From Octopus vulgaris (taxonomy: Eukaryota), in the NCBI GenBank assembly GCA_951406725.2, contig OX597820.1, positions 78,182,001 to 78,246,000 of the forward strand: a DNA stretch of 64,000 nucleotides, given 5' to 3'. Below the pieces are notes generated by a model that saw only the letters and a program-made list of their open reading frames with translations, did not search any database and was not told the DNA's origin. Below are positions 2,002-57,430 of this stretch, piece after piece. The stretch's first letter is position 1; each line of letters starts with the position of its first letter. The translations under genes were made by a program, and so were the position numbers.

Positions 2002-3261
2002 TAATTTTTATACAAAAATAAGTATGATGGAAAAAAGTTCTCAAGGGAGTTGAACAGCAGAAGCTCTTCAAAGAAGAAACTGTCTCTGGTTCAAGTGCTT
2101 CGGCCCGTAACTTCTTGCACACTAAGGTAGCCGCGTCCAGATCATGACTCCTGGGTGCCCTTCTGCTGACTTTTTTGAACCATTGATTGTGTGCATTTAA
2201 ACCGATTGGAGATTTCATCTAGTTGTAATTCCTCTCTGTAGACTCAGCTTTCAAGCTAATACTTAAAGCAGAAATAATGTTGGTTGCCATGGTAGCAGTG
2301 AAACGTCAAGGCTATTACAATGACTCAATCATAGTTACTTCCCTTAACGTTAAAACAAACGTATTACCTTCAAACGGTATGGAAGATGTTTTTGTTCCTC
2401 CTCGACAAGACCCAGCTCGAAGATCTCGACGCTGTCTTGGATTTGGACTTTATGGCTTTGGTGGTGTTCTTCCAAGAAACTAAGAATTGTTTCTACTAAA
2501 TCCCTGAAGATGGAGCTCCAGTATGGTCGCAGGGATATAGTTCGAACATGTAAAATATAAAAGATAAAGGTAAGAGCAGTACTAAAACAAGAGTAGAAAA
2601 CAACCTGCTAAATGCCATAGCAAAGCAAAACCGATACTGTCCATATACAGACAGTTCTGCACCTCCAAAAAGCCAATACAGGATTCATTAAAAAAAGCAG
2701 CAACTCGTTTATGGTGAAGTAGAAACTCTCATACAACGTTGAAAATAGAATGGGGATGATAAAATCTTGTGCCTATAAATCAGGGCTTAATCGAATTTCC
2801 TCTTTACGAATTTCCAGGAAATCAATGTAAAAATATGTTTCGTATTCATTTCCTGCCATCCGCTTCTGTTTTCTCTTGTAGTCAGCTTCTTACATCTCCA
2901 CGCACGAAACTCACGAACATAAACCAACATCAAAGAAATTATTATTGTCTGTTAATTTGACGCTGCAATGAAACCTGTTTATAGATTATCAACGACATGT
3001 CTATATCTATATAGATTGAAATATGGGAAGCAGTTATGAATACGATTAGACATGCAGAAACTGCATGAGAACAATTGACGTTATCATGATCAGTTCCTAA
3101 ACAAGATACGGTAGTTCCGAAGAATTTATTATATAACACGAATATTTCGTTCCGTATCATCATCATCATCATCATCATTATCATCATCATCATCATTTTC
3201 AGCAGCAGCAGCAGCATCTCCTTGACGTTGCCGTTGTTGTTGTTATTTTTTTTATTATTAT

Positions 3262-3500
3262 TTCCTTCTTTCTTCAAATTTTCTTCCGTTTCTCGCCGAG
3301 TATTTTCCGTAGGGGAGAGAAGCTCATTGTATGCATTCCCAGATTACACACACAAATTCACAGGTAAAATATGTAATTAAAAATATTAATAAATAAATAA
3401 ATTCATGAATAGATGTTGTTTTCACAGTGATAATGCTCTTCTCAGTACATGAGTCGTTCCAGTTAACACGATTTTTTGCACTTCCTGTGGGGATGGCAAG
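3262..3500 (-). mobile_element. R4/Dong-type LINE 3' end
   Basis: The reverse complement resembles the coding end and 3' UTR of the 5952-6920 element (CAAAAAATCGTGTTAACTGGAACGACTCATGTACTGAGAAGAGCATT; CTCGGCGAGAAACGGAAGAAAATTTGAAG). It abuts a trinucleotide repeat. Confidence 0.75.
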
Positions 3501-3719
3501 AAAAAAAGTCGATATATATGACAGGTTATCTTAAGAGGTTAAGCAGTTGCGGTCGATGAAAAAGGTGGTAGTAGTACCAATTAAAGTCGGATCCCTGGGA
3601 ACAGTGAGTAAAAATTTTGAGAAATACATGGAATAAATAAGGGTGGAACACTGGAATACTCCAGATGGTGCTTAGTGAACAGATGACACCATAGTACATC
3701 TGCAGAGGTAGAAGCTGTG

Positions 3720-5290
3720 CAGCCGCCCAGGTTTTGATAGATTCAATTTTATTCTGTCCGTTAAATTTCGACTTAAGTATCAGTCTCAGTCTGTGCAAGT
3801 ACTCCATCTTCAATTTTCTGTCGATTCTTTCTCCATCAATTTATCCATTTGCAATATCCCCAAGTACTTATAACCCGTCTCTTCTATCTGCTTCATAACC
3901 TCCCCCGACGGTATCGCTAGCCTGTCCATACATTTGATTTCGCATCTCTTCAAGACTAAAAAAAAAACACACTTTTTCAGTCCGAACTCCATTCTGATAT
4001 CAACACTGTATGTATACAGTGTATCAACGAGGGAACTGATTTGGGATTCATCGTTACCATAAAGTTTGAGGTTATCCATGAATAATAAAAGGTTGTTTCT
4101 TTGTTGGCAGCTTTTGAATACACATCCAGCCTTTGCATTCCTCAGAATTAGTGTTATTGGTATCATGCACAGTACAAAGATCAGTGGGGAAAGGCAGTCC
4201 CCTTGGAAGAAACCTCTCTTGATTTCTGTTGTCGTAAACTCCTTCCATATGCTGTCAGTTCCTTCCTCCACTTCGCTATACTTTTTTCGAGCAATCACAA
4301 TATTTTCTATATAAGTAGCCAACAGGATATCGGCCTGTAATTGTCTACCGTATTGTCTTTTTCTATGTTTTTCAAGCAAAACATTGTCCTACACATTGTC
4401 AACCACTCTGGTTTTACTTGGTCAGCATTTAACAAGGCGTTCAGTTGTGTAGCTATCCGTGCATTACATTCACCAAATCTTTTGATCCAGTAGCCTTGAA
4501 CTCCATCTGGTCCCGGGGCCCTGAAGTTGCTCATTTTTTTGCTGATTTCCATTACTTCCGACTGAAATGACTAGTTCTGCCTGTTTTGGACACACTGGTG
4601 TTTGTTTCAGTTCTTGCAACCATTCGGCATCCTTCTTGTACTCCTTGTCTTTGCTCCAGATGTCACTCCAAAACCATTGACTTTCAATGTTATCTGGTAT
4701 CAAACTTCCATCTGTACACTCTGTTTAAGTTATTTCTTTGTAGAAGCTCTTCTGATCTACTCTGAATAAACTATTCTACTGGAATCCTTTCGCTCATTGG
4801 TCGTATCTTTGCTTTATTTGCAACGTGGAGCTGTTTTAGTTCCTTCATTACCACATTCGGCTCCTTTCTTTCAATATAATACTTTCTGTTCAATGCCCTG
4901 TATTTTTCTATCGCTTTTAAGCTCTCCCTTCTCTTTTCGGTCTAATACAGAAATATCTTTCGAGAGCATATCTAACCCTGCCTGTATTCTTCTTTTCTAC
5001 CATGGATCTTTTCTTTTGTCACTCCCATTATATTTCTTTTTCTTGATATCAACATCCACATTTTCTACTACAAAATACTTGCTGCCTTGATGAAGGTATT
5101 TGTTTTTGTGTCGTTTTTTATATATTTCAGAATTTCATTCATGTTTTTCCTTTCTTTGTTCAGTTTCTACCGATCAACCTTTTTAAGGTTCTAAATAATG
5201 TCGCTATTGTTCTCCTGTAGCCATGCCTGTATTCTGTGGTAGATTGCCATTCACGTTTCTCTTTTGTCACCATTAGTTTTATTGACTTCT
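3720..5290 (-). pseudogene. R4/Dong-type LINE reverse transcriptase region, frameshifted
   Basis: Split ORFs carry RT motifs: APGPDGVQGYWIK, NYRPISC, IKRGFFQGDCLSPLIFVLCM, LLFMDNLKLY (YMDD-like), MEFGLKKC, YKYLGI. Confidence 0.9.
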
Positions 5291-18419: not shown

Positions 18420-18661
18420 CTTATAAATACGGGCAAACGAAAAATTTCTAGTGTCAAATATGCCATGGAAGAAGCAAAACACTAAGTCATGAGCACAATT
18501 AAGTACCCCAAATACATCTAAAATAGAAATACTCCAACCCATTCAAGCCACGTGCGATTTGAACTGAGGCTCTCACAGAGTAAATTTATATTGACTCATG
18601 ACTTAGTGTTTTGCTTCTTCCATGGGTATGAGTAAGTATCTCATTTATTTCTTTACCACAT

Positions 18662-18721
18662 TTATCACTGACGAAGGGAGGGTTCTTACGAGCTAACCCT
18701 GAAATCGGTCCGATATGGTAA
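18662..18721 (+). ncRNA. Type I hammerhead ribozyme
   Basis: Helix I TTATCA/TGGTAA; core CTGACGA; helix II AGGG..GGTTC(TTAC)GAGCT..CCCT; GAAA; helix III TCGG-T-CCGA; AUA cleavage triplet ending at 18715. Confidence 0.8.
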
Positions 18722-18949
18722 TAATGGAATTTTTTCAGAAATTTCTGTCGGCTTTTTTTCGAGTAGCGTGCGAATTGTGATAAATTATATGGTAATGGAC
18801 AATATGTCCAATTTTTCGGCATATTTGGCATTAGAAGTTTTTTCGTTTGTCCTTATATGTAAGTTGTTTATAATTTTAACCTTTAAAGGTATTTTTAATA
18901 TGCTGGCCATTGATAAATTTTTTTTTTCGAAAGAATTTTATCCTACATT

Positions 18950-19051
<102 letters not shown>

Positions 19052-19377
19052 TATATATATATATATATGTCTATATATATATGTCTATGTATATATATAT
19101 ATATACATATTTTTAACCTTTAAAGGTATTTTTTAATATGCTGGCCATTGATAATTTTTTTTTTCGAAAGAATTTTATCCTACTTTAAATATAAATTTAA
19201 GTGTTCACTTCCGGACTCTCTCACTCTGTGAGAGCCACAGTTCAAATCGCACGTGTCTTGAATGGGCTGGGGTATTTCTATTTTAGATGTATTTGGGGTA
19301 CTTAATTGTGCTCATGACTAAGTGTTTTGCTTCTTCCACGGGTATGAGTAAGTATCTCATTTATTTCTTTACCACAT

Positions 19378-19437
19378 TTATCACTGACGAAGGGAGGGTT
19401 CTTACGAGCTAACCCTGAAATCGGTCCGATATAGTAA
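19378..19437 (+). ncRNA. Type I hammerhead ribozyme, second copy
   Basis: Same core and helices II/III as 18662. One helix I mismatch (TAGTAA). Confidence 0.75.
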
Positions 19438-19669
19438 TAATGGAATGTTTTAGAAATTTCTGTCGGCTTTTTTTTTTTCGAGTAGCGAGCGAATTGTGAT
19501 AAATTATATGGTAATGGACAATATGTCCAATTTTTCGACATAGTTGGCATTAGAATTTTTTTCCCCTTGCCCTTATTTATAAGTTGTTTATAATTTTAAC
19601 CTTTAAAGCTATTTTTTAATATGCTGGCCATTGATAAATTTTTTTTTTCGAAAGAATTTTATCCTACAT

Positions 19670-23525: not shown

Positions 23526-23570
23526 AAGGGTCATTCATTAAGAATGAGAAACCAAGTTCGAAATTTCCCA

Positions 23571-23616
23571 GACACCTGATGAAGACTGGAGAGTATATCA
23601 GCCGAAACGTTGTGTT
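23571..23616 (+). ncRNA. Minimal type I hammerhead ribozyme
   Basis: GACAC-CTGATGA-A-GACTG(GAGAGTATAT)CAGCC-GAAA-CG-TT-GTGTT. A partial - homologue lies at about 60880-60995. Confidence 0.7.
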
Positions 23617-25633
23617 AACAGCAAACAAGAGGAGGACAAATATCCGTCAAATGTAAATAATGTAAATGATGTAAGATCTTTTTTATTCGGCGTTGTTGTT
23701 TTCTGTCTTTTGTAACCTATATATTTTCATACATTCTACTATATCATTTTCCATGATGTCTTTTGTGCACATCTAACGCCATCTTCATAAAAAGGTCAAT
23801 CTATGACATAAGAGTTAAGGAAAACAATAAATCCTATGAGAGGAGGAGCAATCCAGAATATTGTAGGCCTAGTATTTTATAGGATGAGAGTAGCAAACGT
23901 CGGTATCGAGAATGTCGTATAAAGAAAATTGAAGACTTCATATAAATGAAAAATTCAGTTTAGAAACAGGAAGGAACATTGATTTATCTATTAGACACAA
24001 AGTTCTTACATCTTCAAATATAAGACGACAATCCTTCAGACTGACTACAAGATATTACAAGCTTTCATTGCATTGATAAGCAAATAATGAAAGAGCAAAT
24101 GTATATATGAATTTATTAACGCCAGGATTACATAACTCTTTGCTGTGTCGACCACTCGATGAACACAAACATTTTCCGCTACATGGATATTACGATTCCA
24201 TAAGGAATTAGGAAACCTTATTCCTATGAAGTTGCTTTGCAGAATTTGGCATCAGTTACATATAGATATTATGCAAACGTATCACATGAACAGAAGAGAA
24301 ATGGAATTACACGTATTGGAATATATCAGTTAGATAAATATATAAGTGAGATAAAACATCGATCGAGTTTTTGTATTTTATCCTTGTCATCTTCGTAATA
24401 TTTAGTATTCTTTATATGGTACTAACATTGGGAAATCTTCGAATAAAACGAGCGAAGAAAGAAGAGAATCTAAATTCCATATCCTTTCCCTAGGGCTATA
24501 AGGAATCTGTAAAATGCAACACGTTAAAATAGAAATGCAAAAATGGTGGCTATGTATTCGTACGTAGATGTAAATAAGATTATACATGCAGAAATACATT
24601 ATGCTGTATTTACAAATTTGGGAAAATATAGCAAGAAAATAAGAATATGCGCTGGAAGATTAAATGTTACAATAAGTATATTATAATGAATGGTATATCC
24701 AAAGAATTATAATATATTTTTAATTCTTTAACCTGTTTATTGCGTAGAAAAAACCCTGCTGTGTATCGGATGAGTTGTCACAAATAAGTTTTTGTGCATC
24801 TTCATGAATATTTCTGCAGTATAAGAATGTGAATTATCAGTGATGATTACAGTTTAAAACTCGTGACAGACTTGTAAATAATAGACTTATTCTGATTGGT
24901 GGATTTATTGATGACAACCAATATAGATGTCATTAACCGAGATACGTGTTGATAAGAAAATGGCTCTGATATAATACATACATGCATAGAGGCATACACA
25001 CATATTCGCACGTGTGTGTGTGTTTGTGTGCGCGCGCGCGTGTGTGTGTGTCTGTGTGTGTGTTGCGTGTTTCCTACAAAATCGAAAGCGCGATTACTCT
25101 GAATAATGTACGCGTATAAATGCTTAACTTACAATGAATAACTTCTAAAGCAAGTTTATACACGCTTTCCTATATGTATGTAGTGTGTCTATGTGGGTAT
25201 ATGTGTCAATTTCTTTTACCTTTTTTTTTTTTGCTCTTTTTTCTCTATATACCCGTGTATATGAGACGAGTTTTACCGCTATAATTTATCCTTCTTAGTT
25301 GCGCTGAGCTGGCTATATGTATCTCGATAGCCGACTAAGTAAGCGTTTCCTTCTATGTAAACGTTATCTCAATGAGCGAACAAACGATACGTAGTAACTC
25401 CATACCACCTCAATATATAGTTTCGCGAAAGATTCGGAGATTCTCTGGTATAAGAATCTCTAGTATTAGATAAATAGTACGCTGGCAGTACGTTGCATGA
25501 TACAGAGAAAACAATTTGAGGGAAGGGGTAAGTCATTCACATGGAAACGGTGACATGATTTATTTTATCGGCAACGAATAGATGTAAGTCAAACTTACCG
25601 TAAAAAGTAGTCATATGGCCTTAGACAGACAGG

Positions 25634-26575: not shown

Positions 26576-28346
26576 CTACATTCACAAACTCACACACACA
26601 AACGCCCACATACATAGACGTTTGTGCTTGGCAAGCTAACTTCTTACCACGCAACCATGCCTGCACCTACATTCACAAACTCACACACACAAACGCCCAC
26701 ATACATAGACGTTTGTGCTTGGCAAACTAACTTCTTACCACACAACCATGCCTGCACCTACATTCACAAACTCACACACACAAACCCCCACATACATAGA
26801 CGTTTGTGCTTGGCAACTAACTTCTTACCACGCAACCATGCCTGCACCTACATTCACAAACTCACACACACAAACGCCCACATACATAGACGTTTGTGCT
26901 TGGCAAACTAACTTCTTACCACGCAACCATGCCTGCACCTACATTCACAAACTCACACACACAAACGCCCACATACATAGACGTTTGTGCTTGGCAAACT
27001 AACTTCTTACCACGCAACCATGCCTGCACCTACATTCACAAACTCACACACACAAACGCCCACATACATAGACGTTTGTGCTTGGCAAACTAACTTCTTA
27101 CCACGCAACCATGCCTGCACCTACATTCACAAACTCACACACACAAACGCCCACATACATAGACGTTTGTGCTTGGCAAGCTAACTTCTTACCACGCAAC
27201 CATGCCTGCACCTACATTCACAAACTCACACACACAAACGCCCACATACATAGACGTTTGTGCTTGGCAAGCTAACTTCTTACCACGCAACCATGCCTGC
27301 ACCTACATTCACAAACTCACACACACAAACGCCCACATACATAGACGTTTGTGCTTGGCAAACTAACTTCTTACCACGCAACCATGCCTGCACCTACATT
27401 CACAAACTCACACACACAAACGCCCACATACATAGACGTTTGTGCTTGGCAAACTAACTTCTTACCACGCAACCATGCCTGCACCTACATTCACAAACTC
27501 ACACACACAAACGCCCACATACATAGACGTTTGTGCTTGGCAAACTAACTTCTTACCACGCAACCATGCCTGCACCTACATTCACAAACTCACACACACA
27601 AACGCCCACATACATAGACGTTTGTGCTTGGCAAACTAACTTCTTACCACGCAACCATGCCTGCACCTACATTCACAAACTCACACACACAAACGCCCAC
27701 ATACATAGACGTTTGTGCTTGGCAAACTAACTTCTTACCACGCAACCATGCCTGCACCTACATTCACAAACTCACACACACAAACGCCCACATACATAGA
27801 CGTTTGTGCTTGGCAAACTAACTTCTTACCACGCAACCATGCCTGCACCTACATTCACAAACTCACACACACAAACGCCCACATACATAGACGTTTGTGC
27901 TTGGCAAGCTAACTTCTTACCACGCAACCATGCCTGCACCTACATTCACAAACTCACACACAAACGCCCACATACATAGACGTTTGTGCTTGGCAAACTA
28001 ACTTCTTACCACGCAACCATGCCTGCACCTACATTCACAAACTCACACACACAAACGCCCACATACATAGACGTTTGTGCTTGGCAAACTAACTTCTTAC
28101 CACGCAACCATGCCTGCACCTACATTCACAAACTCACACACACAAACGCCCACGTACATAGACGTTTGTGCTTGGCAAACAACTTCTTACCACGCAACCA
28201 TGCCTGCACCTACATTCACAAACTCACACACACAAACGCCCACATACATAGACGTTTGTGCTTGGCAAACTAACTTCTTACCACGCAACCATGCCTGCAC
28301 CTACATTCACAAACTCACACACACAAACGCCCACATACATAGACGT
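26532..28346. repeat. Minisatellite, 20 x 91 bp, nearly identical units
   Basis: Unit TGTGCTTGGCAAACTAACTTCTTACCACGCAACCATGCCTGCACCTACATTCACAAACTCACACACACAAACGCCCACATACATAGACGTT. The 91-bp period is visible in the ORF start spacing. Confidence 0.97.
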
Positions 28347-28347
28347 A

Positions 28348-28569
28348 TACAAAGGTTGTGCTGAAAACTTCATGCCTTTGAGTAACAGAACATACAGGAG
28401 GATAATTTAATTATGATTTTATTCAATATATTTCCTTCTCAGATTTACACTCTTATTGCTGCGGTCCTTCAGTTTTTCTAAGTTTTATAGAAGAGTTCGG
28501 AAGGTTGAGCCTCCAACAAGGCTTTTCACCATAACATTAAAGCCAGCACCTTTTCAGCTCTCCCTCGTA
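28348..28569. mobile_element. Mariner-type MITE
   Basis: TA-CAAAGGTTGTGCTGAAAACTTCATGCCTTT ... AAAGCCAGCACCTTTTCAGCTCTCCCTCG-TA: degenerate TIRs with TA at both ends. Confidence 0.6.
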
Positions 28570-29883: not shown

Positions 29884-29928
<45 letters not shown>

Positions 29929-30089
29929 GTTGTATAAAGTCAACAAAACGTGACAGTCTCGTAGAGGGAATTACACCACCGCTATATAACCCTAGGAAGC
30001 ATCGACGATTCCTGTCAGCTTTGACAAATTTTCTGTGTCCTTATATTTGCAAAAGGGAGGCAAGCACCCCCACCAGCTAGGACTAGCAA

Positions 30090-30135
30090 CCTGAATACAT
30101 GCATGTTTCTGGGTATTGACCGTCATCAGTTCAGG
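30090..30135 (-). ncRNA. Minimal type I hammerhead (helix II partly mutated)
   Basis: The - strand reads CCTGAA-CTGATGA-CGGT(CAATA)CCCA-GAAA-CATGCATG-TA-TTCAGG. Confidence 0.7.
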
Positions 30136-31244
30136 GTAGAAATTCCTTATTATCAAAGGAAATGTCCGAATACAGAAGTAGAGAAAAGGTTGGAAACAAC
30201 AGTGGAAGAAAAAGCAACCGATGAAGAGAAGATGGAGAACAATAATAGAACGAATATGGTGAAGAGAAGGAAGAGAGAACAAGTCACCACCTTTGGAAGA
30301 GGCAAAAAAGAGTAAAACAGCGGCAGAGAATATAACTTTTCAGAACGGTAACACAGAGGAGCCAACTATGGAAGGGATAGAGAGTGCGATGGAACTGCAA
30401 TACGAAAACGAAATAGAGCGAGAAAATTTAGAGTTGTGTGAGCTAAAAGATAGAGAACAGATGGAGGAGACGCATTTGAAAAAGTCACCAACTTTTATAA
30501 GAAACGGAAAAAAGTAGTGGAATGGCAGAGAATATAACAGACCAGGACGGTAACACTGAGAGAATATATATGGAAGATATGCTGAGAGCGATGAACCTGC
30601 ACAGCGAAGAAGTGTGGCAGTGGTTTAGGCTCAAAGAAAAAGAACAGATGGAAGAGAAGTATTTGCAGTCGGGAGAAAATTCAGATATACAAACGGAGAT
30701 GAACGAAGAAGTATACTCGAGAAGAGAAACACAAGAAAAGAAAGAGAACGAGAGGAAAAAGAAATGTAACAATAATAAATGTGGAAACAAAACGTAGACG
30801 GTAAGTATAATTAAGAGTGTAACGCAACGAATTTTTTTTTTTTTAAATATGAAATGAACTGCAAATGAACTGAGAATTGAACTTGTGTTATTTGTCTGTG
30901 AAATTTAATATGTAAAAAAAACGAAAAAGTAACGACTGGAAAAAAAAGATAAAATAGAAAAAGAAAATGCAAAGACTAATGTGAACAATTAATGATAAAT
31001 TTTACGATATTGATAAGAAGACCATCGCGGTTTTGCCTCACACTGAGACCCGATGGTATTGAGAATTAATGTGAAAAATTTCACTGTTCGTCTCACAGCG
31101 GGAGTGAGTCGAACAGCTTCATTCTCATTATTAATCACTCCATCAATCATACATCATTTGATTTATATTCCCGTTTTGTCTTGTTTTGTCCCCTCTATGT
31201 AATCAAACCATTGTGCCTATAATAAAAAGAAAAGGACACGCTAC

Positions 31245-31290
31245 TCTGAACTGATGATGGGCAATACCCAGAAACATGCATGTATTTAGA
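31245..31290 (+). ncRNA. Minimal type I hammerhead ribozyme, intact
   Basis: TCTGAA-CTGATGA-TGGG(CAATA)CCCA-GAAA-CATGCATG-TA-TTTAGA. GUA site ends at 31284; helix III is palindromic. Confidence 0.88.
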
Positions 31291-31512
31291 TTGCTGTTCC
31301 TAGCTGGTGGAGGTGCTTGCCTCCCCTTTGCGAATATAAGGACACAGAAAATGTGTCAAAGCTGACAGGAAGCGTCGATGCTTCCTAGGGCTATATAGCG
31401 GTGGTGTAATTCCCTCTACGGGACTGTCACGTTTTGTTGACTTTATACAACCACTTTATCGCTCCACCACCGCTCATGTCTCGTTGAGACATTTAGTAAT
31501 TCATTATTTCCA

Positions 31513-31604
<92 letters not shown>

Positions 31605-31652
31605 CATATATATATATTTATATACATATATATATATATACATATATATATG

Positions 31653-31683
<31 letters not shown>

Positions 31684-31701
31684 ATATACATATATATATA
31701 C

Positions 31702-31832
<131 letters not shown>

Positions 31833-32260
31833 TATATACATATATAAAAAGATGAGTGTATTTTTACCTTGTTCATCTCCGTTTGTATATCTGAATTTTC
31901 TCCCGACTGCAAATGCTTCTCTTCCATCTGTTCTTTTTGTTTGAGCCTAAACCACTGCCACACTTCTTCGCTTTGCAGGTTCATCGCTCTCAACATATCT
32001 TCCATATATATTCTCTCAGTGTTACCGTCCTGGTCTGTTATATTCTAGATATTACTCTATTATCAATTCACATACGGTTAGGATAGGTTTTTCAAACACA
32101 AAAAAATCTCTTACAAATTATCTCTTCACTTAATAACAAACTGTTAAATATTAATACATTTACTAATACTAACATTAATTTAGCTAATACCATCCAAACC
32201 TCAATAAATATTAATAACAAGGTTATTGTATCTGAAGTCAATTCCAATACAATTAAGTTT

Positions 32261-32650
32261 ATGTCAAGTAACTCTAAGATTAAAAATTCTATATACCAGT
32301 GTATAATCAGTACTCGTAATAAAGTACGATTTTACATTGGAAGCACATCGTTAGAGTTATCTAAAATAATTTCTATCCATTACTCAACATTTAGGGATAG
32401 AAATAAACGTAATAGTACCGGTCTCAGCAAACTGATTTTGGATTTAAAAGACCACAATGAACAATTTCATTTAGAATGGTTGATTCTCTCAATTTCGATA
32501 CCTTATGACAAAGTCAAGGAATTCTGTCTTCTCTGCAATTCTGAGCTATTTTTCATTATTTTTTCTAAAAATACTCTAGTAAACGCGGTTATAGAACGAG
32601 CATGCAGATGTAAGCATTGGCAAAAACACACATTTAGTGCGTATAAGTAG
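32261..32650 (+). CDS. Penelope-like GIY-YIG endonuclease fragment (5'-truncated)
   Basis: IYQC...FYIGST, H.STF, STGLSK.I..LK, W.IL, CLLC..E, C.CKH. Homologous to the 51329 ORF. Confidence 0.85.
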   Translation: MSSNSKIKNSIYQCIISTRNKVRFYIGSTSLELSKIISIHYSTFRDRNKRNSTGLSKLILDLKDHNEQFHLEWLILSISIPYDKVKEFCLLCNSELFFIIFSKNTLVNAVIERACRCKHWQKHTFSAYK

Positions 32651-32852
32651 TCTCTATCATTATATATAATTTAAACTTTAATTTCCTTTATATTTAACAT
32701 TCACTATTGGTATCCCTACTCTTTCTGTTAGCTACTTATGACGTTATATCATATAACGTTTTTTTAAGCAATATTAATAGCGTTCTGTCAATCGCTATAC
32801 AAATCCATCATTTTTTGCTAAAATGTCTTATTGACATGTTTCGTGTTTTTCC

Positions 32853-32936
32853 CTTTCCCGAAGAGAAGATTGCATTGTTTATACCATTTATTCTTTTGAA
32901 TAGTATCAGTGGAATTTTCGAAACATGTGTCGAAAG
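32853..32936 (+). ncRNA. Hammerhead motif with long helix II in the PLE 3' repeat (core CCGAAGA, U4C)
   Basis: CTTTC-CCGAAGA-GAAGATT...AATTTTC-GAAA-CATGTG-TC-GAAAG, about 200 nt after the GIY-YIG stop codon. Confidence 0.65.
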
Positions 32937-33232
32937 TAAAAATATTTGATTTACACCTGCGTTAAACTCCATTTATTTATTCATATATACATATATATAC
33001 ATATATATACATATATATATACATATATATATATACATACATATATATATATACATATATATACATACATATATATATATACATACATATATATAGACAT
33101 ATATATATATACATACATATATATACATGCATACATATATATATACATATATATATATACATACATATCTATATACATATATATATAAATATATATATAT
33201 ACATATATATAAATATACATATATATATATAT

Positions 33233-51615: not shown

Positions 51616-52486
51616 TAATAAAAATAAAAATAAAAATAAAAATAAATTGAATAATAATAATAATAATAATATGGATAAAATTAATAACATTAATAATTCC
51701 TTAAATGCTGTATATAAATATAATTCTGATAATAATTTTAATAATATGAAGAATTCTAAATTTAATAATTATAATACTGACAATTATAATAAGGTGAATA
51801 AGAATAAAATTTGGTTAATAGTTCCTTATGGTGATCAAGTAAAAACGAATATTATCAAAGAGATTTTAGATATTATAGAACTATTTATTAGAGATAATCG
51901 TAAATATAAAAATATTTTCTCTAGTGATAATTTTGGAGTAGGTTATTCCACTACTAATAATGTAGGTAACATTATTTCTTCAGTTAATAAATTTAAACTG
52001 AATAATTTTTATAAAAATAAATTATTTGATAATAATAATAAGGATAAGACATATATTAATTGTACTTGTAGAGATAAATCTAAATGTAAATTAAATAATA
52101 AATGTGATATTAAAGATGTAGTGTATAAATGTATAGTTACATTACATGATAATAACTTTAAGAAGAATAATTACCCAAAAGCGGTTTATATAGGGTCTAC
52201 TTCCTCTAAAATAAAATTAAGAATCGCACAACATATGAATTCTTTTAAAAATAAAAACTTAATAAACTCCACTGGACTTAGTAAGTACATTTGGAGAATT
52301 AAATCACAAAATATTAATTATAGTTTAAATTGGGAAATAATTTGTAAAACTAAATCATATACTATAGGAGCGAATTGTTGTTCTTTATGCTCTAATGAGT
52401 TTAAAGAAATTTTATTTTATAAGTATGATAATTTACTTAATATAGGTGAAGAGCGCAAAATAAAATGTAGACATATATTACTTTAA
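51329..52486 (+). CDS. PLE RT-linker plus GIY-YIG endonuclease (partial), with poly-Asn expansion
   Basis: YNEAL..AGY, CTCRDKSKC.....C, VVYKC...VYIGST, KLRIAQH..SFK, STGLSKYIW, W.II, CSLC..E, KCRH. This Cys pattern resembles Naiad-type PLEs. Confidence 0.88.
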
Positions 52487-56956: not shown

Positions 56957-57430
56957 CCTATTTGTAAATCTCACAACGGGATATATTCAGCAACAATACT
57001 TTGGAGTAAAGATTATTTGCCAACATAACATGGTGGTCCTGGTTATGGACTAATATTGCTGTAATTTAGCCATAGATCACATCGTCTCCAGCTGGCTGTG
57101 CGACAATCTGTGTCTTTATATTTTAGAACAAGGGAATCTAGCACCCCAACTCAGCTCAAAACAATATCTGTGTATCGCGATTTCCGGGTTATTTCCCTTC
57201 ATCAGCACAGAATAATTGTTTTGTGCTGATGAAGGGAAATAACCCGTAAATCCCGATACACAGATAATGTTTTGAGCTGAGTTGGGGTGCTAGATTCCAT
57301 TGATCAAAAATATAAGGACACAGATCGTTTCGTACAGCTATCTGGAGACGATGTGTCCGGGGCTAAATTACAGCAACATTCGTCCTAAACCAGGACTGCC
57401 ATATCTTGTTGGCAAAAATCTATACTCCAT
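56957..57430. mobile_element. ~430-bp imperfect palindrome with head-to-head hammerheads at its centre
   Basis: Arms at 57002-57210 and 57221-57429, with an AT-rich spacer of about 10 nt. Confidence 0.85.
57167..57211 (-). ncRNA. Minimal type I hammerhead ribozyme
   Basis: The - strand reads TCTGTG-CTGATGA-A-GGG(AAATAA)CCC-G-GAAA-TCGCGA-TA-CACAGA. A mutated mirror copy lies on + at 57221-57264. Confidence 0.8.

Follow-up and report, generated by a model that had tools for sequence, protein, structure and literature searches.

A hammerhead retrozyme joined to an ORF1-only LINE in Octopus vulgaris, a composite likely copied whole by a Penelope-like enzyme

Layout of the locus and its two hammerheads

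The window analysed here is a 64,000-nt stretch of Octopus vulgaris DNA (contig OX597820.1, positions 78,182,001 to 78,246,000, forward strand). It contains an element with inverted arms between two (TA)n tracts, the right one followed directly by a second insertion. The features of this region, in window coordinates, are as follows.

29890..29925, (TA)n microsatellite in the left flank, by its sequence the likely insertion target; many copies elsewhere end in (TA)n
29921..30139, minus strand, left arm, an inverted retrozyme equivalent to positions 8-226 of the 281-nt hammerhead segment
30090..30135, minus strand, left hammerhead, type I, predicted cut between 30096 and 30095, helix III palindromic
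30140..30155, plus strand, 16-nt junction insert that by eye resembles the 3'-terminal stretch of the retrozyme
30156..30797, plus strand, 3' half of the cassette ORF, cut within a CCHC knuckle (last Cys codon 30163-30165), with a Glu/Lys tail in three broken frames
30253..30665, plus strand, degenerate ~190-200-bp tandem duplication in the ORF tail (67-84% identity), single-copy in the relative at locus L075
30798..31233, plus strand, cassette 3' UTR and a 3' tail that we take to be Tx1-type, poly(A)-signal hexamer at 31221-31226
31234..31514, plus strand, right hammerhead segment, 281 nt of a ~365-nt retrozyme, main 3' end at 31514 and a second near 31459
31234..31250, plus strand, target site, the stretch duplicated on either side of full-length cassettes; it includes the 5' strand of helix I
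31245..31290, plus strand, right hammerhead, type I, intact core at 31251-31257, predicted cut after 31284, palindromic helix III at 31275-31282
31517..31845, (TA)n microsatellite in the right flank, from the sequence
31846-32970, separate 5'-truncated Penelope-like insertion (GIY-YIG end and 3' UTR)
31868..32046, minus strand, within the Penelope-like insertion, inverted copy of interior 30529-30708, 97-98% identical to the window element and 93-94% to other copies

An initial annotation had described inverted ends of ~215 bp, each with an outward-facing hammerhead at its inner edge, around a purine-rich interior with a ~200-bp duplication, Glu/Lys-rich broken frames and no RT or transposase motif. 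These features are all present. The ends align over 219 nt at 93.2% identity (29921-30139 on the minus strand against 31241-31459 on the plus strand, E 9e-90; 228 nt and 92% in an ungapped comparison), both hammerheads are type I, the duplication is degenerate and ~190-200 bp long, and no RT or transposase motif was seen in six frames of the interior. Its view of the ends as the terminal repeats of one element, each encoding a hammerhead, did not survive: the arms are asymmetric and are not fixed between copies. The right end is 55 nt longer than the left, with 31460-31514 having no left partner. Nor is this a single element, since the arms are retrozyme, the interior is a LINE ORF1 gene, and the two arms appear to derive from different templates.

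Our hammerhead call is based on pattern and covariation. Across 43 distinct motifs drawn from 57 cassette-hammerhead junctions (12 of the 57 could not be parsed), helix I is 91.5% paired, compared with 67.7% in a shuffled control that ignores relatedness (maximum 77.1% over 2000 shuffles); 33 of the 43 have a palindromic helix III. Among the 150 of 210 Rfam matches listed, the hammerhead was absent, and those listed were microsatellite-driven miRNA matches. Under unconstrained folding, which is not a measure of activity, the monomer showed no hammerhead fold and two copies paired via helix III.

The two hammerheads of the window element are not equivalent. A G-to-T change at 30119 breaks one of the three G-C pairs of helix II in the left motif; it is absent from 21 of 21 compared copies, and the left hammerhead is predicted to be weak or inactive. 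The two helices I do differ with pairing kept, as had been noted, and the difference is private to the right arm of the window copy: all three changes lie there, at 31245, 31287 and 31290, sister copies differ from it at each (12/12, 12/12 and 12/12), and a 29-mer over 31245 occurs once in the genome. These private changes thus provide no evidence for selection on two ribozymes. The expectation that transcripts of either strand would be cut near their 3' end stands as geometry only, with the left hammerhead predicted to be damaged and the right predicted to cut 230 nt from the end.

Contigs from four sequencing runs, none recorded as RNA, cover the element in part and none spans the whole; one of them (X6 record 9), from a run not recorded as RNA, bridges the left junction at 30102-30217. 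Elsewhere in the window, 27000-28479 holds a 91-bp unit repeated in tandem at least 14 times, with identities between copies of up to 99-100%.

A retrozyme family and the LINE cassette that inserts into it

We assign the arms, from their sequence, to a non-LTR retrozyme of ~365 nt. A search of the 2.8-Gb genome with the arm gave 1941 candidates, of which 40 were scored and 30 loci retrieved; the genome holds 109 exact hammerhead cores. In these 30 loci, most copies are a unit of ~365 nt, made up of the 281-nt segment (31234-31514) and an 83-nt upstream piece, and often lie in partial tandems. Copies end at one of two places, equivalent to 31514 or ~31459, mostly in (TA)n, and some bear inverted partial copies on the 5' side; the left arm of the window element stops at the second of these preferred 3' ends. 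Empty retrozymes without any cassette also show inverted arms (L026-L028), and those at unique sites are flanked by variable duplications of ~10-13 nt, judged by eye. The family combines a type I hammerhead, a conserved core and covarying stems with a dispersed, non-coding, partly tandem unit in the 150-450-bp range that defines retrozymes. Animal non-LTR retrozymes are described as type I hammerheads in low-GC units of 150-450 bp (350-390 bp in mussel) forming partial tandems, and their mobilisation by the enzymes of Penelope-like elements (PLEs) has been proposed (PMC7229834; bioRxiv 10.64898/2026.07.22.740005).

The interior has a different origin. It gave 31 matches in the genome. Longer copies, whose 3' half it matches at 88-92% identity, run upstream into an ORF with a CCHC knuckle; the window copy is truncated at 30156. 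For the full ORF (P0001), the Pfam zf-CCHC match (E 0.0015) is below the cut-off, a PDB sequence search matched only the knuckle, and a structural model shows a tandem RRM fold plus knuckle (pLDDT 75) whose matches are all weak (best E 3.5e-4, low TM). P0001 has 136 scored relatives in the genome. Its closest named proteins are octopus hypothetical proteins, with four relatives filed so, and a search of protein representatives returned 2154 unnamed matches. Among 20 distant loci, homologues of the ORF (21-28%) lie directly upstream of an endonuclease-plus-RT ORF2 in L111, L116 and L118, and other loci hold ORF1-only units ~1.9 kb long, partly as tandems. Cassette 3' tails resemble those of complete LINEs. 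Because the ORF is homologous to a LINE ORF1 and is not accompanied by an ORF2, and because the cassettes have LINE-like 3' tails and duplicate their target, we assign the interior to an ORF1-only LINE derivative, of which it represents the 3' half; this derivative has a predicted tandem RRM, a CCHC knuckle and a Tx1-type tail. The Tx1-type label is our assumption, made from the APE+RT ORF2, the RRM+CCHC ORF1 and the site specificity.

Complete LINEs are also present as a young family with an intact 1132-aa ORF2 (L111, L115-L120, L253-L282), which has the same non-ribozyme 3' junction sequence in 25 of 30 loci and beside which lie trains of 504-aa ORF1-only units. A short repeat at L221:1370-1520, presumably SINE-like, ends in the same kind of LINE tail.

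A search for a cassette tail with a hammerhead core 8-36 nt beyond it gave 66 exact matches, compared with 0 for the control. For the first 30 of 116 tail matches, the sequence that follows is a hammerhead core in 19, a variant core in 1, the target plus another cassette in 4, a target stub in 1 and other DNA in 5, so that the retrozyme target is found in 25 of 30; upstream of these same tails, ORF1 is present in 28 and ORF2 in 0. Full-length cassettes, which belong to several subfamilies and occupy several retrozyme families, sit 18-38 nt upstream of cores, and on either side of them the sequence immediately before the core is duplicated over 12-23 nt. Second cassettes are stacked at the same site in L071, L074, L123, L182, L197 and L216. 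Based on the 66 exact junctions, the duplications and the same-site tandems, we conclude that cassettes insert site-specifically. In L065, the cassette subfamily of the window element occupies a different retrozyme and has a piece of an earlier target at its 5' end; in both L061 and L065, the same cassette has also inserted alone.

Extra pieces of an earlier target site are present at cassette 5' ends in L181, L203, L205 and L065, which suggests transcription from within the previous host retrozyme. A TATA-like tract lies ~30-45 nt upstream of insertion sites, and the tract and the earlier-target pieces together fit promoter borrowing from the retrozyme. No autonomous Tx1-type element was found at the retrozyme target: ORF2 was directly upstream of 0 of the 30 tails, the 57 junctions showed a single exception, a Tx1 end next to a truncated cassette at L195, and two further sequence patterns for an autonomous LINE at the target gave 2 and 0 matches, none fitting. 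A reading of the cassette as an intron, from the AG/GT at the borders of one family, was rejected because the repeat is a duplication and the borders differ in other families.

Further hammerheads were seen in passing. The window holds a well-formed type I motif of another retrozyme family at 57159-57213 (minus strand), a family that is the cassette target in L196; two near-identical hammerhead-like motifs with a long helix II at 18660-18726 and 19376-19442 (plus strand), 716 bp apart and possibly a larger retrozyme tandem; and, at 23568-23629 (plus strand), a hammerhead-like core without an obvious helix I. Variant cores (U4C; U3-A8 replacing C3-G8) are found in L121, L123, L128, L230, L231 and L235, in related retrozyme families that also serve as cassette targets. 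L073 (reoriented 2961-4124) contains an unrelated, inverted hammerhead pair 1.1 kb apart, a two-armed shape in another family.

Composite copies, the inverted arm and the Penelope-like neighbour

Once a cassette had inserted, the composite of cassette and retrozyme likely moved as one unit. In a tree of hammerhead segments (219 alignment columns), the right arm of the window element belongs to a clade of 15 rows that represents 11 loci, each of them linked to the same cassette subfamily; its support (93/90) is below the starred level of the tool. Hammerhead segments of this clade have common diagnostic bases that are absent from empty copies. If each cassette had inserted independently, truncated ones would be expected to retain the upstream target. 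The retrozyme upstream piece was found at the cassette 5' end in 0 of 11 sister loci. The 57 junctions include some segmental duplicates and some pairs of arms from a single locus. Among them, the upstream hairpin stands before 25 complete cassettes and 0 of 21 cassettes without a recognisable head; later insertions or divergence past the references affect about half of the 21, which leaves ~10 clean truncations. The remaining junctions comprise one weak hairpin match inside the ORF (L194) and 10 headed cassettes, tandem or clipped, with none. The absence of the target thus argues against independent insertion. Inversions that span both cassette and hammerhead occur at L002, L064, L091, L126, L197 and L209 and need a template holding both. 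Composite 3' ends are the two ends used by empty retrozymes, in (TA)n and not at the Tx1 target. No host-site duplications were found around truncated composites beyond simple repeats.

The inverted arrangement is not fixed among the genomic copies collected, which either have no inverted arm or are broken elsewhere. Five of the 11 sister loci have no inverted arm and have unique flanks, and the other six carry inverted pieces with different breakpoints; L052 and L058 have the layout of the window element, again with other breakpoints. The inverted arm is, from the copies compared, a variable by-product of insertion. In the tree, the left arm falls outside the composite clade, among empty retrozymes, and its diagnostic sites are mixed, with empty-type bases in the inner ~100 nt (4/4), composite-type bases in the outer part (2/2) and one site that is neither. 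This grouping and these mixed bases point to different templates for the two arms. The simplest reading would be a template switch during second-end synthesis, and the 16-nt junction insert at 30140..30155 is likely a template-jump scar. Alternatively, the left arm could come from an unsampled intermediate subfamily or from an independent neighbouring insertion. The window copy itself is dead.

At its 5' junction, the Penelope-like insertion at 31846-32970 has an inverted 3' tip of its own and an inverted 180-nt copy of its neighbour's interior. The reverse copy, at 31868..32046, is, as read from the sequence, a local example of template jumping. The PLE family to which this insertion belongs, which we take to be Neptune-type, occurs in very many copies; intact 778-aa ORFs are present and inverted pairs are frequent. 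It has an unrelated 3' end, no clear hammerhead and no Pfam match, and because the 3' end differs it was set aside as a candidate partner of the composite. Among the one PLE family compared and the GIY-YIG matches in all retrieved loci, no autonomous PLE with the ends of the retrozyme was found, and PLE RT or GIY-YIG sequence was absent from all units examined. Another GIY-YIG fragment lies at ~52109-52474 of the window (coordinates possibly those of the reverse strand) and is distant from the neighbouring PLE, with 37% identity.

We infer that the carrier of the composite would be a Penelope-like RT. PLEs are described as undergoing 5' truncation, forming partial tandems and carrying an inverted 5' copy that can frame an insertion in inverted repeats; as favouring (TA)n and having a hammerhead in the terminal repeat, with cargo carried in trans also mentioned; and as having had no in vitro system for Penelope-type insertion as of 2021 (10.1101/2021.04.23.441226).

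Mechanism, rival explanations and known systems

We propose that the window element is a 5'-truncated composite, an ORF1-only LINE placed before a retrozyme hammerhead, that was likely copied whole by a Penelope-like enzyme; we consider this account probable. The cassette would have been inserted before the hammerhead by a Tx1-type endonuclease/RT acting in trans. A promoter in the upstream piece of the retrozyme would then drive RNA through the cassette. An RNA ending at the cassette tail could re-insert alone into another retrozyme, and read-through past an uncut hammerhead, or a circle formed between two hammerheads, would take along the retrozyme 3' end. Such composite RNA would be copied from two preferred 3' ends into (TA)n by the presumed Penelope-like enzyme, often halting within the cassette. 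Priming of the second end may have begun at the alternative 3' end, with a later switch to an empty retrozyme as template; the resulting inverted arm would look like a terminal repeat. Thus, Penelope-like copying would also account for the inverted arm. The initial annotation had argued for PLE-type retro-mobilisation and against a MITE; this mode of copying does best explain the shape, while the interior comes from a LINE, not from a PLE. A more ambitious version supposes a two-engine coding retrozyme: a hammerhead-delimited RNA of ~2.3 kb, possibly a circle, would alternate between LINE and Penelope machinery, the RRM-CCHC protein would be kept for packaging or chaperoning retrozyme RNA, and the composite would be the selected unit. 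We regard this version as doubtful.

Several other explanations have to be weighed against copying of the composite by a Penelope-like enzyme. The composite could have arisen by 3' transduction, in which a read-through RNA of the half-LINE and retrozyme was copied by a Tx1 ORF2 protein, with twin priming producing the inversions. Both processes are established for L1, the LINE-tailed cassette can move by itself (L061, L065), and Tx1-type LINEs with intact ORF2 are active and abundant. However, composites end where empty retrozymes end, in (TA)n rather than at the Tx1 target, and the cassette-free retrozymes of L026-L028 show the same inverted arms, which makes transduction unlikely in our judgement. 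Each cassette could instead have inserted independently, with later deletion of the upstream target and with an unrelated adjoining retrozyme as the left arm. Site-specific insertion is real, the two arms differ by 7% and the left one falls outside the composite clade, and in a study of crocodilian SINEU-3 a similar test favoured independent insertion (PMC4494074). Against this stand the missing upstream target in all 11 sister loci, the diagnostic bases that set sister hammerhead segments apart from empty copies, the inversions across cassette and hammerhead at six loci, and the two composite-type states in the outer part of the left arm. We find independent insertion quite improbable.

Two further explanations treat the element as a single entity. 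If it were an internally deleted non-autonomous PLE with inverted pLTRs, the ORF would be its own, as in Chlamys-2_cBra, a PLE with an upstream zf-CCHC ORF described in 10.1101/2021.04.23.441226, and full copies (inverted arm, partial arm, ORF, arm) do have a PLE layout. Yet the homologues of the ORF are LINE ORF1s, the ORF is bounded by target duplications whose offsets vary by retrozyme family and is stacked in tandem, and no unit examined holds RT or GIY-YIG; this explanation is largely refuted and keeps very little probability. The 219-nt inverted arms and TA flanks would suit a MITE or another DNA transposon whose terminal inverted repeats are genuine. The arms, however, are asymmetric and of mixed origin, the inverted arm is missing from 5 of 11 sister loci and the others break at different points, and copies are polar and 5'-truncated with hammerheads that covary. 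The survey of copies found no fixed matching terminal inverted repeats, and a MITE or DNA transposon was rejected as next to impossible.

These sequences give evidence that ~2 kb of coding cargo can be carried by a retrozyme and that a single element may switch between two unrelated reverse transcriptases. The copies also form a natural record of Penelope-type insertion, with two priming ends, template jumps and inverted arms of mixed origin, and they indicate a route by which non-coding ribozyme RNAs could gain a nucleic-acid-binding protein. Such composite copies are prone to mis-annotation as MITEs or host genes. A literature search, mostly by title and abstract, did not find the combination of cassette and retrozyme in print, and Repbase/Dfam may hold these families; PMC13282606 mentions neither hammerhead nor retrozyme. 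Each layer of the structure has precedent, and what is added is the composite moving as a unit.

The cassette, which we label Tx1-type, differs from HAL1, HeT-A and Ag-Sponge in being site-specific for hammerhead retrozymes and in having a second route of spread. It resembles these ORF1-only non-autonomous LINEs, derived from L1, Jockey and CR1, respectively, in having kept ORF1 and lost ORF2 and in its LINE-like 3' tail (PMC5786205). Target-specific Tx1 LINEs are known from Tx1 in Tx1D and from Tx1-Mar, together with SINEU, in Mariner-N4_AMi (PMC4494074). The likeness lies in a fixed site within a mobile element, duplications of ~16 nt, tandems that sandwich the duplication and possible target-derived transcription, whereas the target here is a ribozyme retroelement. 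Hitchhiking was rejected for SINEU-3 in that study, and a similar test supports it here (PMC4494074). Like the non-autonomous partners of PLEs, the composites show 5' truncation, partial tandems, an inverted 5' copy and microsatellite targets; unlike PLEs, their unit has no RT or GIY-YIG, and what they carry is itself a mobile element that has a separate route of spread. Finally, the arms share with metazoan non-LTR retrozymes a type I hammerhead, a low-GC unit (here ~365 nt) and partial tandems. Those retrozymes are described as non-coding, whereas a subset here bears a coding LINE cassette of 1.6-2.1 kb that apparently moves with them.
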